From positions 1 to 6,081 of IMG/VR virus record IMGVR_UViG_2645727640_000005: 6,081 nt of DNA; one strand, 5' to 3'. This DNA is from a virus (Duplodnaviria > Heunggongvirae > Uroviricota > Caudoviricetes). Position 1 is the stretch's first letter. Each line of letters begins with the position of its first letter. The translations under genes and the position numbers were made by a program. The notes under the pieces were generated by a model, which saw only the letters and a list, made by a program, of their open reading frames with translations, ran no database searches and was not told where the DNA came from. Below, piece after piece: positions 2,088-5,767 of this stretch.

Positions 2088-2245
2088 AGCATCCTCACGA
2101 TAATATCCGGGTAGGCGCGATCACTTTCATCTACTCCGTTACAAAGCGAGGCTGGGTATTTCCCGGCCTTTCTGTTATCAGAAATCCACTGAAAGCACAG
2201 CGGCTGGCTGAGGCGATAAATAATAAACGGGGGCTGTATGACTGA
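2084..2245 (+). CDS. small ORF (53 aa) coupled to exo; positional equivalent of lambda orf60a, with a different 3' end
   Basis: ATG 2084..2086 overlaps the exo stop (ATGA). It translates to [53 protein letters not shown]. Lambda has orf60a in this position with the same 4-nt overlap. The ORF is shorter than 60 codons and its end overlaps the methyltransferase start, consistent with a mosaic junction near 2180..2240. It is below the size cutoff of the ORF track. Confidence 0.45.
2150..2176 (+). terminator. putative intrinsic terminator (tL3-like) downstream of exo
   Basis: Hairpin GGCTGGG (2150..2156), loop TATTT, CCCGGCC (2162..2168), seven pairs including one G-T wobble, followed by the T-rich run TTTCTGTT. 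Lambda is known to have tL3 shortly downstream of exo; identity with tL3 is from position only. Confidence 0.35.
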
Positions 2246-2795
2246 TTTCACCGGAAGCAATACTCCTGCCGAACATCGCGACAGCTGGCGCACACCACCA
2301 GAGATTTTTGCTGCGCTTAATGCAGAGTTCGTTTTTCAACTTGATGCTGCCGCCAGCGAAAAAAACCGACTATGTCGGCTTTTTATCTCACAGGAGCAGA
2401 ACACATTAACCACTTCATGGCCTGAAGCAATGGGATATGCCTCTGGTTATGTCTGGTTGAATCCACCATACAGCAATATTTCCCCTTTTGTGAAAAAGGC
2501 AGCCACTGAAAACAAATTCAGTAGTGTGGGATGTGTAATGTTATTGCCTGCTGACACATCTGTCGGATGGTTTCATGAAGCGATACAAACCGCCAGTGAG
2601 GTCAGATTCATCACGGCAGGACGACTGGCATTTATTAACCCACTCACGGAGAAACCCGTCAGTGGAAATAATAAAGGCTCGATGCTCATTATCTGGCACC
2701 CATACCCCCGTACACACTGCCACTTTACGACCGTTGATCGTGGAGAGTTGATGGCGTTCGGCTCAAGGATTCTTGCCCGTCGGGAGGCTGCATGA
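2238..2795 (+). CDS. orphan phage-type DNA N6-adenine methyltransferase (phage Dam family), 185 aa
   Basis: 185-aa ORF with an N-terminal WRTPPEIF motif, an FQLDAAAS motif and the catalytic NPPY tetrad (WLNPPYSN), the hallmark of the small phage Dam methyltransferase family. GGGGG lies 4 nt upstream of the ATG. No restriction endonuclease partner is visible in the window. Confidence 0.85.
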   Translation: MTDFTGSNTPAEHRDSWRTPPEIFAALNAEFVFQLDAAASEKNRLCRLFISQEQNTLTTSWPEAMGYASGYVWLNPPYSNISPFVKKAATENKFSSVGCVMLLPADTSVGWFHEAIQTASEVRFITAGRLAFINPLTEKPVSGNNKGSMLIIWHPYPRTHCHFTTVDRGELMAFGSRILARREAA

Positions 2796-2875
2796 CAACC
2801 ACGGAATGCATTTTTCTGGCAGCGGGCTTCATATTCTGTGTGCTTATGCTTGCCGATATGGGACTTGTTCAATGA
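2792..2875 (+). CDS. possible 27-aa hydrophobic peptide, start and stop both in ATGA overlaps
   Basis: ATG 2792..2794 overlaps the methyltransferase stop (TGA 2793..2795). The ORF encodes MTTTECIFLAAGFIFCVLMLADMGLVQ and its TGA (2873..2875) overlaps the ATG (2872..2874) of the next gene. The hydrophobic core could form one transmembrane helix. It is below the track cutoff and could be chance. Confidence 0.3.
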   Translation: MTTTECIFLAAGFIFCVLMLADMGLVQ

Positions 2876-3087
2876 CACCTCAGCAGGAAAACGCCCTTCG
2901 CAGCATTGCCCGTCAGGCTAATTCTGAAATCAAAAAAGCCAGACAGCAGTTTCCGGATAAAAACGTCGATGACATTTGCCGTAGCGTACTGAAGAAGCAC
3001 CGCGAAACGGTAACGCTGATGGGATTCACACCGACTCACTTAAGTCTGGCAATCGGTATGTTAAACGGCGTCTTTAAGGAACGGTGA
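2872..3087 (+). CDS. hypothetical protein, 71 aa
   Basis: Inside the 2773..3087 track ORF. ATG 2872 gives MTPQQENALRSIARQANSEIKKARQQ...GVFKER. An alternative ATG at 2806 would give 93 aa, and the track start at 2773 is TTG. No motif recognised. The start choice is uncertain. Confidence 0.5.
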   Translation: MTPQQENALRSIARQANSEIKKARQQFPDKNVDDICRSVLKKHRETVTLMGFTPTHLSLAIGMLNGVFKER

Positions 3088-3107: not shown

Positions 3108-3133
3108 AGGGAGCTACAGGCTCCTTTTTTATT
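3108..3133 (+). terminator. putative intrinsic terminator or attenuator between genes
   Basis: GGAGC (3110..3114), loop TACAG, GCTCC (3120..3124), immediately followed by TTTTTT (3125..3130). The stem is short, 5 bp extendable to 7 with a G-T pair. It lies within a possible 29-aa ORF (3090..3179). Confidence 0.4.
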
Positions 3134-3185
3134 ATTCGCATTCACCCTCAAGCGTATTAACCAACAATTCAGGGATTAATGAAAG

Positions 3186-3407
3186 ATGGCAGATATCATT
3201 GATTCAGCATCAGAAATTGAAGAATTACAGCGCAATACAGCAATAAAAATGCGTCGCCTGAACTACCAGACTGTATCCGCAACTCATTGTTGTGAGTGTG
3301 GCGATCCGATAGATGAACGAAGACGCCTGGCAGTTCAGGGTTGTCGGACTTGTGCAAGTTGCCAGGAGGATCTGGAGCTTATCAGTAAACAGAGAGGTTC
3401 GAAGTGA
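3186..3407 (+). CDS. TraR/DksA-family C4 zinc-finger protein, 73 aa
   Basis: Cys at residues 35, 38, 56 and 59 give C-x2-C-x17-C-x2-C with a GDPIDERRR segment between the pairs, the pattern of the phage and plasmid TraR/DksA zinc-finger family. Its stop overlaps the GTG start of the next gene. Confidence 0.7.
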   Translation: MADIIDSASEIEELQRNTAIKMRRLNYQTVSATHCCECGDPIDERRRLAVQGCRTCASCQEDLELISKQRGSK

Positions 3408-4090
3408 GCGAAATTAATTATCAGGCACTGCGTGAAAAGGCAGAGAAAGCAACTAAAGGAAGCTACATCGTAGGGCATACATCTGTTAACCAGCACGGCA
3501 ATTTAACAGGAGTTTTTGTTTGCCAAAAATGGAAAGGAGAACCCGGTGGTGTGATTGCGGAATGTCATGTTAACTGCCTGGTTGAAACAGATGTTCAGGC
3601 TTATGCAAACGCTGAATTTATTGCTGCTTTTAATCCAAATGTTGCGCTGGCACTACTGGATGAACGGGAAAGAAACCAGCAATACATCAAACGCCGCGAC
3701 CAGGAGAACGAGGAGATTGCGCTTACGGTTGGGAAGCTGCGCGTTGAGCTGGAAGCCGCAGAGAAGCGCAACGCAAAATTACAAAGCGAGAATGCATACA
3801 TCCGCAACCGGTACAAAGAACTGGACCTGTTAATCGGGAAAAACATTCTGGTCATGCAGGCTGCCATTATCGAATGGCAATCGACTGGCGACGCTAAAAG
3901 CGGACTGGCATGGATTTATAACACACTGTTTGGCCCAGGCGAATTGCCGGACGAATCTGAGAAAGATGCTCAGGCCTACTTTAATCGCAAATATGCACCG
4001 ATTGACGAAAAGCTTATGGCGCTTCACAAGTGGTTTTGGGAACAAAGTGAAGCCAAGCGCGCCGCTGGCATTCGCATCAAAGGAGAGTGA
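3404..4090 (+). CDS. Ead/Ea22-like coiled-coil protein, 228 aa
   Basis: GTG start at 3404 with AGAGAGG 6 nt upstream. The N-terminus (INYQALREKAEKATKGS) and the NAEFIAAFNPNVALALLDE segment resemble the conserved motifs of prophage Ead/Ea22-like proteins as I recall them. The central region (LTVGKLRVELEAAEKRNAKLQSENAYIRNRYKELD) is a heptad-like coiled coil. Confidence 0.6.
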   Translation: MSEINYQALREKAEKATKGSYIVGHTSVNQHGNLTGVFVCQKWKGEPGGVIAECHVNCLVETDVQAYANAEFIAAFNPNVALALLDERERNQQYIKRRDQENEEIALTVGKLRVELEAAEKRNAKLQSENAYIRNRYKELDLLIGKNILVMQAAIIEWQSTGDAKSGLAWIYNTLFGPGELPDESEKDAQAYFNRKYAPIDEKLMALHKWFWEQSEAKRAAGIRIKGE

Positions 4091-4091
4091 G

Positions 4092-4607
4092 ATGGCGTTA
4101 ACACACCGAGAACTCTGTCAGATTGCGTACAAGTTCCTTAAGCGCAACGGGTTCAAGGTTTGCTTTCATGACCGCTTTATAGCCGTAACCAGTACCGGAG
4201 AACAGCCAGATGCTATGGGATTCAGAAATTCAGCATCATGCCTGATAGAGGCGAAATGTTCTCGTGCTGACTTGTTGGCAGATAGAAAAAAGCGTTTTCG
4301 TAAAAATCCGTCTCTTGGAATGGGAGACTGGCGATTCTTTATTAGTGAGCCGGGAACTATTTCAATTGAGGATTTACCACCTGGCTGGGGATTACTTCAC
4401 GTTGTTAACGGAAGAGTACGGAAAGTACATGGATGGCCCAAGGGGAATTGCTGTTGGGGTAACCCTGAGGATAAACCTTTTATTGGGAATAAGCAGGTTG
4501 AATGCGATTACATGTTGTCTGCCTTAAGGCGCATGGAGTTGAGAGGGCACCTTAATGAAATATATGACGGTGTAATTGTTAATAAGAAAGAAGGAAACGC
4601 GGCATGA
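4092..4607 (+). CDS. hypothetical protein with PD-(D/E)xK nuclease-like motif, 171 aa
   Basis: ATG 4092 with GGAG 6 nt upstream. The track ORF 3930..4607 extends 5' in another frame of the upstream gene and is not used. The N-terminal 60 aa have a helix, two strands, PD at residue 40 and hhEAK at 53-55 (FIAVTSTGEQPD...SCLIEAK), the canonical PD-(D/E)xK arrangement. The C-terminal 100 aa are Trp/Cys-rich (GNCCWGNPED, VECDY) and not recognised. A nuclease function is inferred from the motif only. Confidence 0.55.
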   Translation: MALTHRELCQIAYKFLKRNGFKVCFHDRFIAVTSTGEQPDAMGFRNSASCLIEAKCSRADLLADRKKRFRKNPSLGMGDWRFFISEPGTISIEDLPPGWGLLHVVNGRVRKVHGWPKGNCCWGNPEDKPFIGNKQVECDYMLSALRRMELRGHLNEIYDGVIVNKKEGNAA

Positions 4608-5491
4608 TCACTATTACCAAAGGGCGACTGCTGACAATCAAACAGTGGCGCGAAACATACGGACCTGGTAGCAACGTTGTACTGCCAGCAGAAGAAGCGG
4701 AAGAACTGGCACGAATTGCTCTGGCAGCGCTGGAAGCCGAGCCGATAGGTTTCCGTTGCAGGCGCAATGATAACCTTGGTGATTGGAGTTACGTATATCA
4801 TCGAGAGCCAGATGATTTTGAGCGCAAACATTTAGTGATAGAGGGCATTTACGCCGCCCCTCCAGCACCAGTAGTACCGGAAGAAAAACCAATGCCTAAT
4901 CCTCTTAGCATGTACGCGGTTGATGCTGTTGCCGCTATTGCAGAGGTGAGAGGCTGGAACGCCTGCCGTGCCGCTATGCTTCAGTCCGGAAACTTTCGGG
5001 AAAACAAGAATTCGTCAACCAATAATTTTCGGGAAATCGCGGAAACGTCAACCAACTATCCGGTAATTCCTAGTGAGGTGTTGTCCGCAATCCTGAAGGT
5101 TGCCAAGATTCGTGCCGATGTCGATGATTTTGACGGTGACAGGCGAGGTATCGGTGATTGTCTGGATGAGGCTGAGCAAGAGCTTATCGTTACCATTAAC
5201 AAATATGCCAGTCAGTTGGCAGCAGAACCTATAGCGCCTAATGACGTTCGAGAGCAGACAGCCATTCCACAAGTTCCGGTGACTCCGGATGGTTGGATAA
5301 GCTGTAGTGAGCGAATGCCGAATACCAAAACAGCCGTTCTTGTTGCCGTGGAGTTTGACAGGAAAGGTGACTGGCGAATGAAATGGGCTACTTACATCCC
5401 GGGGCATCCTGACGCTAATGATGGGTGGATAATTCCTGGTGCGTCGTGGAAACCGTCACACTGGATGCCGCTACCAGAGCCTCCACTTTGA
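4604..5491 (+). CDS. DUF551-type prophage protein, 295 aa, with internal tandem repeat
   Basis: ATG 4604 overlaps the upstream stop (ATGA) and AAGGAA lies 7 nt upstream. The C-terminal ~70 aa (WISCSERMPNTKTAVLVAVEF...GWIIPGASWKPSHWMPLPEPP) match the DUF551 signature of prophage proteins as I recall it. The N-terminal half is acidic and helical. Confidence 0.75.
   Translation: MITITKGRLLTIKQWRETYGPGSNVVLPAEEAEELARIALAALEAEPIGFRCRRNDNLGDWSYVYHREPDDFERKHLVIEGIYAAPPAPVVPEEKPMPNPLSMYAVDAVAAIAEVRGWNACRAAMLQSGNFRENKNSSTNNFREIAETSTNYPVIPSEVLSAILKVAKIRADVDDFDGDRRGIGDCLDEAEQELIVTINKYASQLAAEPIAPNDVREQTAIPQVPVTPDGWISCSERMPNTKTAVLVAVEFDRKGDWRMKWATYIPGHPDANDGWIIPGASWKPSHWMPLPEPPL
4991..5056 (+). repeat. 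imperfect 33-bp tandem direct repeat (2 copies) in frame within the DUF551 gene
   Basis: Copy 1 (4991..5023) AACTTTCGGGAAAACAAGAATTCGTCAACCAAT and copy 2 (5024..5056) AATTTTCGGGAAATCGCGGAAACGTCAACCAAC match at 25 of 33 positions. They encode NFRENKNSSTN and NFREIAETSTN. Confidence 0.8.
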
Positions 5492-5587
5492 AAGCGAAGC
5501 TTATACATATCTTTTACATCAGCAATCTATTGTTAATCTCCAATCAATGTTACGTTGTCATCTCACTCATGCTTTGGAGTTAGTGAT

Positions 5588-5767
5588 ATGTCTTGTCCAA
5601 AATGCGGTTCTGGAAATATTGCAAAAGAAAAAACAATGCGTGGATGGTCTGGTGATTATGTGTGCTGCGATTGCGGATACAACGACTCTAAAGACGCATT
5701 TGGAGAGCGTGGTAAAAACGAGTTTGTCAAAATTAATAAAGAACGCGAAGGCAACGAAAAAAGCTAA
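5588..5767 (+). CDS. small zinc-ribbon protein, 59 aa
   Basis: ATG 5588 with GGAG (5575..5578) upstream. The track start at 5555 is TTG. Cys at residues 3, 6, 26 and 29 give C-x2-C-x19-C-x2-C, and the C-terminus is Lys/Glu-rich. Codon usage is AT-rich. It is followed by a terminator and sits immediately upstream of xis, in the position of lambda's small unnamed ORF and ea8.5. Confidence 0.55.
   Translation: MSCPKCGSGNIAKEKTMRGWSGDYVCCDCGYNDSKDAFGERGKNEFVKINKEREGNEKS

Follow-up and report, generated by a model that had tools for sequence, protein, structure and literature searches.

A predicted stand-alone GATC methylase of the phage N6-adenine methyltransferase family PF05869 in the exo-xis region of a lambda-like prophage

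The closest described counterparts of the gene analysed here are small adenine methyltransferases, and according to the literature GATC is the principal target of the five tested ones (VT2, T1, HP1, Phi93 and Btr190III), whose four host genera comprise Gram-positives as well. M.EcoVT2Dam (PMC6602927) and M.EcoT1Dam (PMC4996451) methylate GATC, HP1 Dam is listed among the Dam-like phage enzymes (PMC7556043), and M.Btr190III from Bibersteinia methylates GATC with substantial off-target activity in addition (PMC4996451). GATC methylation by M.Phi93DAM, from a lactococcal phage, was established by SMRT sequencing together with DpnI and DpnII digests, and the protection from DpnII that this enzyme gives to DNA is the one functional test made within the family (PMC4190342). 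The genes are found in different surroundings: orf32 of VT2-Sakai lies between ninB and ninE in the nin region (pR operon), T1 Dam (gp ST20) is encoded by a virulent phage, HP1 Dam (orf13) is the last early-operon gene of a temperate P2-like Haemophilus phage, and the M.Phi93DAM gene is flanked by the terminase genes of a 936-type virulent phage whose Gram-positive hosts carry DpnII-type systems and are devoid of Dam. A literature search brought up no work directly devoted to a methyltransferase encoded in the exo-xis region.

The window, that is, the whole stretch of 6,081 nucleotides analysed here, is the early leftward arm (pL) of a lambda-like prophage, given here in the sense orientation of its transcript, and it spans the whole exo-xis region. 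Its features are the following, MTase being our short name for the methyltransferase.

about 105-248, kil, read from sequence
203-619, + strand, gam (Pfam Gam)
625-1410, + strand, bet (Pfam RecT)
1407-2087, + strand, exo (Pfam YqaJ)
2078-2245, + strand, orf60a / DUF1317 (Pfam PF07026, E = 5e-32)
2234-2790, + strand, mosaic cassette, in whose place Stx phages have orf63/DUF1382 (three-way alignment)
2238-2795, + strand, coding sequence of the predicted orphan phage N6-adenine DNA methyltransferase, MTase (PF05869 / TIGR01712)
2286-2309, + strand, WRTPPEIF, N-terminal family motif with the core W-x-T-P, residues 17-24, read from sequence
2460-2471, + strand, NPPY, catalytic motif IV, residues 75-78, read from sequence
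2872-3087, + strand, orf61 homolog, the conserved 3' neighbour (phrog_303, E = 5e-36; named orf61 in PhiR30_1)
3108-3134, + strand, terminator-like hairpin (3108-3126) and T-run between orf61 and orf73 (sequence scan)
3186-3407, TraR/DksA zinc-finger protein, the orf73 equivalent
3404-4090, Ea22-like protein
4092-4607, 171-aa protein without assigned family
4604-5491, DUF551 protein
5555-5767, 70-aa protein
5880 onward, start of xis, recognised from its translation

The Red genes gam, bet and exo (203-2087, + strand) belong to the same pL transcription unit as MTase and have annotated homologs. A first-pass annotation of this DNA had put MTase just downstream of the Red genes, which is correct insofar as gam, bet and exo lie upstream and inexact insofar as orf60a/DUF1317 separates it from exo. 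MTase itself is an intact ORF of 558 nt with an ATG start and a TGA stop, encoding 185 aa; its ATG overlaps the stop codon of orf60a (ATGACTGA), a GGGGG stands 6-10 nt 5' of that ATG, and its TGA overlaps a further ATG at 2792. The overlap with orf60a suggests that the two genes may be translationally coupled.

The initial proposal that NPPY and WRTPPEIF mark a small phage N6-adenine methyltransferase is borne out, both motifs being present and three profile collections agreeing on the family. Over 168 of the 169 profile positions MTase matches Pfam PF05869, "DNA N-6-adenine-methyltransferase (Dam)", with E = 2.3e-56 and 190.5 bits for a curated gathering cut-off of 28.1 bits; the NCBIfam equivalog TIGR01712, "phage N-6-adenine-methyltransferase", gives 165.6 bits (cut-off 97.05) and PHROG 111, "DNA methyltransferase", E = 1.5e-77. 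Residues W17, T19 and P20 of the N-terminal motif and N75, P76, P77 and Y78 of the catalytic motif are invariant in an alignment with the VT2-type, T1 and HP1 enzymes as well as among 30 homologs, and the D-x-W-x-T-P motif and the L-D-x-x-A block are both present, with D15, W17, T19, P20, L35, D36 and A39 invariant in the four-way alignment. With 185 aa, MTase has the size of the family, i.e., a single domain of about 140-240 aa to which no separate target-recognition domain is added. Its motifs and fold, together with the tested relatives, point to an AdoMet-dependent enzyme that would form N6-methyladenine, and we regard it as reasonably probable, as part of the explanation that we favour, that MTase is an active stand-alone member of PF05869/TIGR01712.

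The name "Dam" given to PF05869 invites a comparison with the classical Dam enzymes. An AlphaFold2 model of MTase built with 30 homologs (mean pLDDT 85.3, pTM 0.83) consists of one alpha/beta domain in which NPPY directly follows the strand formed by residues 71-74, and fold searches with this model returned remote matches only, to the catalytic cores of larger methyltransferases. As modelled, MTase therefore consists of nothing but the Rossmann-type core of an N6-adenine methyltransferase and has no separate recognition domain. PDB sequence and fold searches found no solved structure for the PF05869 family; the sequence search with MTase gave nothing relevant, its best hit being CutA at E = 0.28, and no Dam chains. 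The alpha-class enzymes of the PF02086 family (E. coli Dam, T4 Dam and DpnM) belong to a different sequence family: MTase has no match to PF02086 at E <= 0.01 in the Pfam search, the superposition with classical Dam is limited to the core (108 residues, 7% identity), and classical Dam has FxGxG, a recognition domain and DPPY in that order, whereas MTase has NPPY in its N-terminal half and no recognition domain. The Pfam name thus reflects function and not orthology, MTase and E. coli Dam having in common a fold and, probably, a target. The non-specific adenine methyltransferases Hia5 and M.EcoGII were likewise considered as members of the family and rejected. Hia5 is of the alpha-class Hia5/Hin1523 type, Dam/DpnM-like, with FxGxG, a central recognition domain and a DPPY motif whose aspartate is residue 194 (PMC3299994), and M.EcoGII is a 349-aa enzyme of the beta-class M.EcoGI/GII type (PMC5778455); MTase does not have such an architecture, with its 185 aa, its NPPY at 75-78 and its match to PF05869 only.

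The named relatives are much nearer. In BLASTP searches MTase is 47% identical to VT2-Sakai orf32 over nearly the full length, 45% to T1 Dam over the core, 39% to HP1 Dam and 36% (E = 9e-26) to PhiL6_03, the ortholog of M.Phi93DAM, whose N-terminus MNNELM is that of the published M.Phi93DAM cloning primer (PMC4190342). We equate VT2-Sakai orf32 with the published M.EcoVT2Dam on the grounds that this nin region has no other family member and that orf32 is its annotated methyltransferase; orf32 is 99% identical to the AU6Stx1 gene that had served us earlier as the VT2-type reference. Like MTase, orf32 is an orphan of E. coli lambdoid phages with PF05869, NPPY and W-x-T-P; it differs in size (175 against 185 aa), in 53% of its residues, in its slot (nin region and pR operon, whereas MTase occupies the exo-xis region of the pL operon) and in its distribution, the nin-region type being found in 244 phage records and MTase in one phage record yet in 312 E. 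coli genomes. M.EcoT1Dam is an orphan of the same family and is GATC-specific, but it has 237 aa, MTase lacking both its N-terminal extension of 45 residues and an insertion of 14 residues. HP1 Dam, of the same family and 173 aa long, comes from a phage with another host and has a C-terminal region unrelated to that of MTase, while M.Phi93DAM, with 140 aa, has, as MTase does, NPPY as its sole recognisable classical motif.

In the four-way alignment MTase shows 49, 44 and 37% identity to the VT2, T1 and HP1 enzymes, which are 31-36% identical among themselves, and of the 37 columns common to these three it has kept 35. By this sequence measure MTase is nested in the space that the three references span. 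Since the tested relatives methylate GATC and MTase is nested among the three that were aligned, the simplest reading, made at 47% identity or less, is that its target is most likely the adenine of GATC. The first-pass annotation had judged that the protein does not reveal its recognition sequence, which in the light of five tested relatives with GATC as main target, and of the nesting of MTase among three of them, seems too pessimistic: the target is reasonably predictable as GATC rather than to be left open. Specificity can nonetheless change over the sequence distance at stake, the literature offering no experiment on MTase itself and no tested relative closer to it than 47%; in two methylome papers PF05869 or TIGR01712 serve as search models only, and no motif is assigned there. 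GATC is mildly depleted in the window, with 17 sites for 23-29 expected, which does not decide the specificity.

How MTase came to lie in the exo-xis region is best seen from a three-way alignment of the window, the Stx1 phage AU5Stx1 and phage PhiR30_1, from which the borders of the cassette were drawn. The flanks are nearly free of mismatches up to about 2233 and again from about 2790; between them lies MTase in the window and in PhiR30_1, and in AU5Stx1 a DUF1382 gene of 192 nt, lambda orf63. The junctions coincide with gene borders. What had been described as an insertion is instead a precise exchange of cassettes in which MTase takes the place of orf63/DUF1382. MTase marks a recombination hot spot at which orf63, a studied pro-lytic developmental gene, gets swapped out, and the exchange bears on studies of this region in Stx phages.

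Transcription of the exo-xis region starts at pL, and in lambda the mRNAs of orf60a, orf63 and orf61 reach a level similar to that of N after infection; a terminator is predicted between orf61 and orf73 in both lambda and phi24B, and downstream of it the lambda mRNA drops (PMC4195576). Because MTase holds the orf63 slot upstream of the terminator-like hairpin, we predict for it, by analogy with lambda, strong early expression once the phage has infected a cell or been induced, and silence in the lysogen. The scan for promoters found no sigma-70-like site near MTase on the + strand. The early-operon expression proposed in the initial reading is in keeping with this position in the pL-driven exo-xis block, 5' of the orf61-orf73 terminator, where lambda mRNA is as abundant as that of N.

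As for selection, the comparison of MTase with a 74%-identical Klebsiella homolog gives pN of 0.19 for a pS of 0.78, which is saturated, and an alignment of 30 homologs with 66-84% identity has 50 invariant columns; to judge from these sequences the gene is kept by purifying selection. A translated search located members of the PF05869-type family at 2,064 places in 2,063 phage records, i.e., about one per genome. An intact nin-region paralog is found in none of the seven other carriers of the exo-xis MTase, a small set of related prophages and not independent samples, and that of strain 2013C-3264 is split by an IS3 element. This suggests that the exo-xis and nin slots are interchangeable homes for one function, and a lambdoid phage apparently has one and only one enzyme of this family, encoded in one or the other of two operons.

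MTase has all the appearance of an orphan. Its best PADLOC match is the orphan-methyltransferase model, and no PADLOC restriction-enzyme model reaches E = 0.001 with any ORF of the window, the sole sub-threshold match being that of a methyl-directed restriction endonuclease model to the TraR/DksA protein (E = 0.0087). In PhiR30_1 and in six E. coli prophages, which occupy four integration sites (near ybhC, tRNA-Arg, icd and tRNA-Thr/proA), the neighbours of MTase are always DUF1317 and orf61, and in eight contexts no nuclease accompanies it. MTase is thus without the linked cognate endonuclease of a Type II restriction-modification system, and the initial statement that no such enzyme is present stands.

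One may wonder what a phage of E. coli would gain from such an enzyme. In lambda virions 46% of the GATC sites are methylated after growth on wild-type cells, and 77% if Dam is over-produced (10.1101/2025.08.29.673000), and P22 and lambda virions are both under-methylated (PMC8022706); from these figures it follows that host Dam is limiting. It is tempting to propose that MTase, whose transcription from pL with gam, bet and exo would follow infection or induction and be shut off in the lysogen, and whose translation is probably coupled to that of orf60a, would act where host Dam becomes limiting during lambdoid lytic growth and leaves virion DNA about half-methylated, so that it would complete the GATC methylation of the fast-replicating progeny DNA. 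Fully methylated progeny could then resist, in the next host, GATC-cutting, methylation-sensitive enzymes of the DpnII/MboI type. The expression timing and the under-methylation are both transposed from the lambda literature and would hold here by analogy, and the protective benefit is one that we infer. Taken as a whole, the explanation by an early GATC methylase that completes progeny methylation and gives a narrow protection against restriction is the one we favour, with rather more confidence than doubt. Together with the one-copy pattern, the roughly 50% methylation of lambda virions provides a rationale for phages of Dam-positive hosts having a GATC methylase of their own. The anti-restriction self-methylation first put forward keeps its plausibility in this narrow GATC form, as the effect of M.Phi93DAM against DpnII illustrates, and loses support as a broad device if the target is GATC, for protection would then be confined to GATC-cutting, methylation-sensitive enzymes and E. 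coli hosts already have Dam. Given a Dam-positive E. coli, the gain from extra GATC methylation is uncertain, and full GATC methylation would make the DNA sensitive to methyl-dependent enzymes such as DpnI.

Other explanations deserve to be weighed against this one. MTase may belong to the same family and yet recognise something other, or less strict, than GATC, such as a short degenerate motif or almost any adenine, and so afford a broad self-protection. The 47% identity to the nearest tested relative, the lack of a discrete target-recognition domain in the model, the many GATC-related sequences modified by cloned M.Btr190III (PMC4996451) and the existence in E. coli of silent, prophage-borne, non-specific adenine methyltransferases such as M.EcoGII (PMC5778455) would all agree with it, as would the Klebsiella prophage homologs (74%) that are fused to a C5-cytosine methyltransferase, which fits a multi-target protection. 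Set against these points, five of five tested members from four host genera, Gram-positives included, act mainly on GATC, MTase lies inside the VT2/T1/HP1 sequence space with 35 of 37 common invariant positions kept, and the known non-specific enzymes belong elsewhere (Hia5 in the alpha class, M.EcoGII in the beta class), so that we hold a different or relaxed target to be unlikely though by no means negligible. A shade more doubtful is a variant in which the exo-xis enzyme has diverged towards a relaxed or different target that broadens the protection of these lambdoid prophages. On another reading, independent of that one, the one-copy pattern (exo-xis or nin slot, not both intact) would reflect a limit on phage Dam dosage. 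It is scarcely credible that MTase forms a restriction-modification pair with a nuclease encoded elsewhere in the window. The candidate partner was the 171-aa ORF at 4092-4607, whose product has no Pfam, PDB or PADLOC assignment and contains QPDAMGF...LIEAKCS, which resembles PD-(D/E)xK nucleases; but its gene is missing from all seven other MTase carriers, is present (97%) in the MTase-less AU5Stx1, and stands 1.3 kb from MTase with three genes and the terminator-like site in between. On its distribution this PD...ExK-like ORF was rejected as the nuclease partner. Nor does MTase look like an inactive passenger that decays in cryptic prophages, a possibility to which we give hardly any credence: some of the prophages that bear it are visibly degraded, with IS insertions and pseudogenes, but the MTase frame is intact with all family-invariant residues kept, the purifying selection on it is strong, and an identical protein occurs in the genome record of phage PhiR30_1.

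A further alternative accepts the GATC target of our favoured explanation and gives the enzyme a regulatory or DNA-metabolic role instead of an anti-restriction one. Possible routes are the methylation state seen by SeqA, MutH or methylation-sensitive promoters, a bias of the lysis-lysogeny decision such as other exo-xis genes exert, or the shielding of Red intermediates from mismatch repair. MTase is part of the exo-xis block, a group of genes with modulating effects on lysogenisation and induction (PMC4195576), and holds the very slot of the pro-lytic orf63; it is close to gam, bet and exo and co-transcribed with them, Klebsiella prophage relatives likewise follow recombinase genes (RecT or ERF), and the Dam supplied by the host lowers the protective value of MTase. 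Yet the paralog is found equally in the nin region and the lactococcal enzymes in the packaging module, so the linkage to Red is no family property; our analysis identified no methylation-sensitive regulatory site, and the family's one functional test, on M.Phi93DAM, gave protection from DpnII (PMC4190342). The mismatch-repair version is weakened in particular, and with it the evasion of mismatch repair as a reason for the Red linkage, by the unchanged mutation rate of lambda when its GATC methylation rises from 46% to 77% with extra Dam (10.1101/2025.08.29.673000). On balance a regulatory or DNA-metabolic role strikes us as improbable, and narrow protection by an early GATC methylase remains the explanation that we retain.

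The gene is already known and is a routinely annotated accessory module of lambdoid prophages, so that beyond correct annotation its importance is little. At 95% DNA identity or more it is found in 312 of 5,426 complete E. coli genomes, in each case as a chromosomal gene, and in all 25 of the matches listed it bears the PGAP name "phage N-6-adenine-methyltransferase" and overlaps a DUF1317 gene. The orf61 homolog is 98-100% identical in all E. coli carriers of MTase. Among 50,697 phage records the cassette DNA occurs in one, PhiR30_1 (99.8%), and the whole window used as query matches 608. The PhiR30_1 protein is 100% identical to MTase and annotated as a DNA N-6-adenine methyltransferase, the listed host being E. 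coli C. No single record among the complete E. coli genomes or the phage records combines the whole window with MTase: the best whole-window records, LC727904 and CP148435, are mosaics with 86-88% coverage that are absent from the MTase matches and apparently lack the gene. Strain N96 has MTase with 74% coverage of the window. The carriers of MTase include the Stx1a prophage of this strain.

The PF05869 domain of the window methyltransferase recurs in Klebsiella prophages as part of a larger ORF. A single 637-aa ORF of one such prophage (L006:3690-5603; GCA_033541585) is an in-frame fusion of a C5-cytosine methyltransferase, recognized in its N-terminal part by PF00145 at 125 bits, with a PF05869 Dam-like domain (aa 460-629, 194 bits) that is 74% identical to the window protein. 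Gene-caller output for this ORF holds only a 200-aa C-terminal product. The fused ORF is also present at a second locus (L007), and truncated versions were found at two others (L008 and L009); the fusion gene occupies the same early-left slot as in the window, after a RecT or ERF recombinase and before int.

Lambdoid phages appear to carry exactly one PF05869 methyltransferase each, its gene lying in the exo-xis slot in some of them and between ninB and ninE in others. This pattern is drawn from the E. coli prophages that bear the window methyltransferase (L010-L015), from locus L001 and from phage records with PF05869 family or nin-region matches. In strain 2013C-3264 the exo-xis copy is present and the nin copy is interrupted by an IS3 element (L011:1686-3525). 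The E. coli Res13 prophage encodes, besides its exo-xis methyltransferase, a 350-aa "DNA-methyltransferase" adjoining the holin gene (L015:1105-2157), so that some such prophages encode two distinct methyltransferases. It is worth mentioning that other prophages with the exo-xis enzyme carry a NACHT-domain protein (AR_0369, L012:4504-6399) or a Panacea-domain protein (SF-468, L014:9477-9947), both encoded near the immunity and replication regions.

Within the window, two further ORFs were considered:

2792-2875, plus strand: hydrophobic-peptide ORF of 27 codons, MTTTECIFLAAGFIFCVLMLADMGLVQ
4092-4607, plus strand: ORF for a protein of 171 aa in which QPDAMGF...LIEAKCS resembles a PD...ExK motif

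The ATG of the former overlaps the methyltransferase stop and its stop codon overlaps the orf61 start; its DNA is kept in AU5Stx1 and PhiR30_1, and neither record annotates a separate gene there. The 171-aa protein had no match in Pfam, PDB sequences or PADLOC, and its PHROG matches (9263 and 631) are of unknown function only. Judged by its distribution it is unrelated to the methyltransferase, and it is possibly a nuclease, as yet uncharacterised, carried by Stx-type phages. The C-terminal half (residues 116-216) of the Ea22-like protein (3404-4090, plus strand) matches the PADLOC model DpdH (E = 1e-36), which could reflect either true common ancestry or a model made from prophage-derived sequence.

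When E. coli genomes were searched with the full window, 13,602 of the matching places lay on plasmids and the median genome had 11 places, which implies that some window segment is widely repeated; both window ends are ordinary kil and xis sequence.
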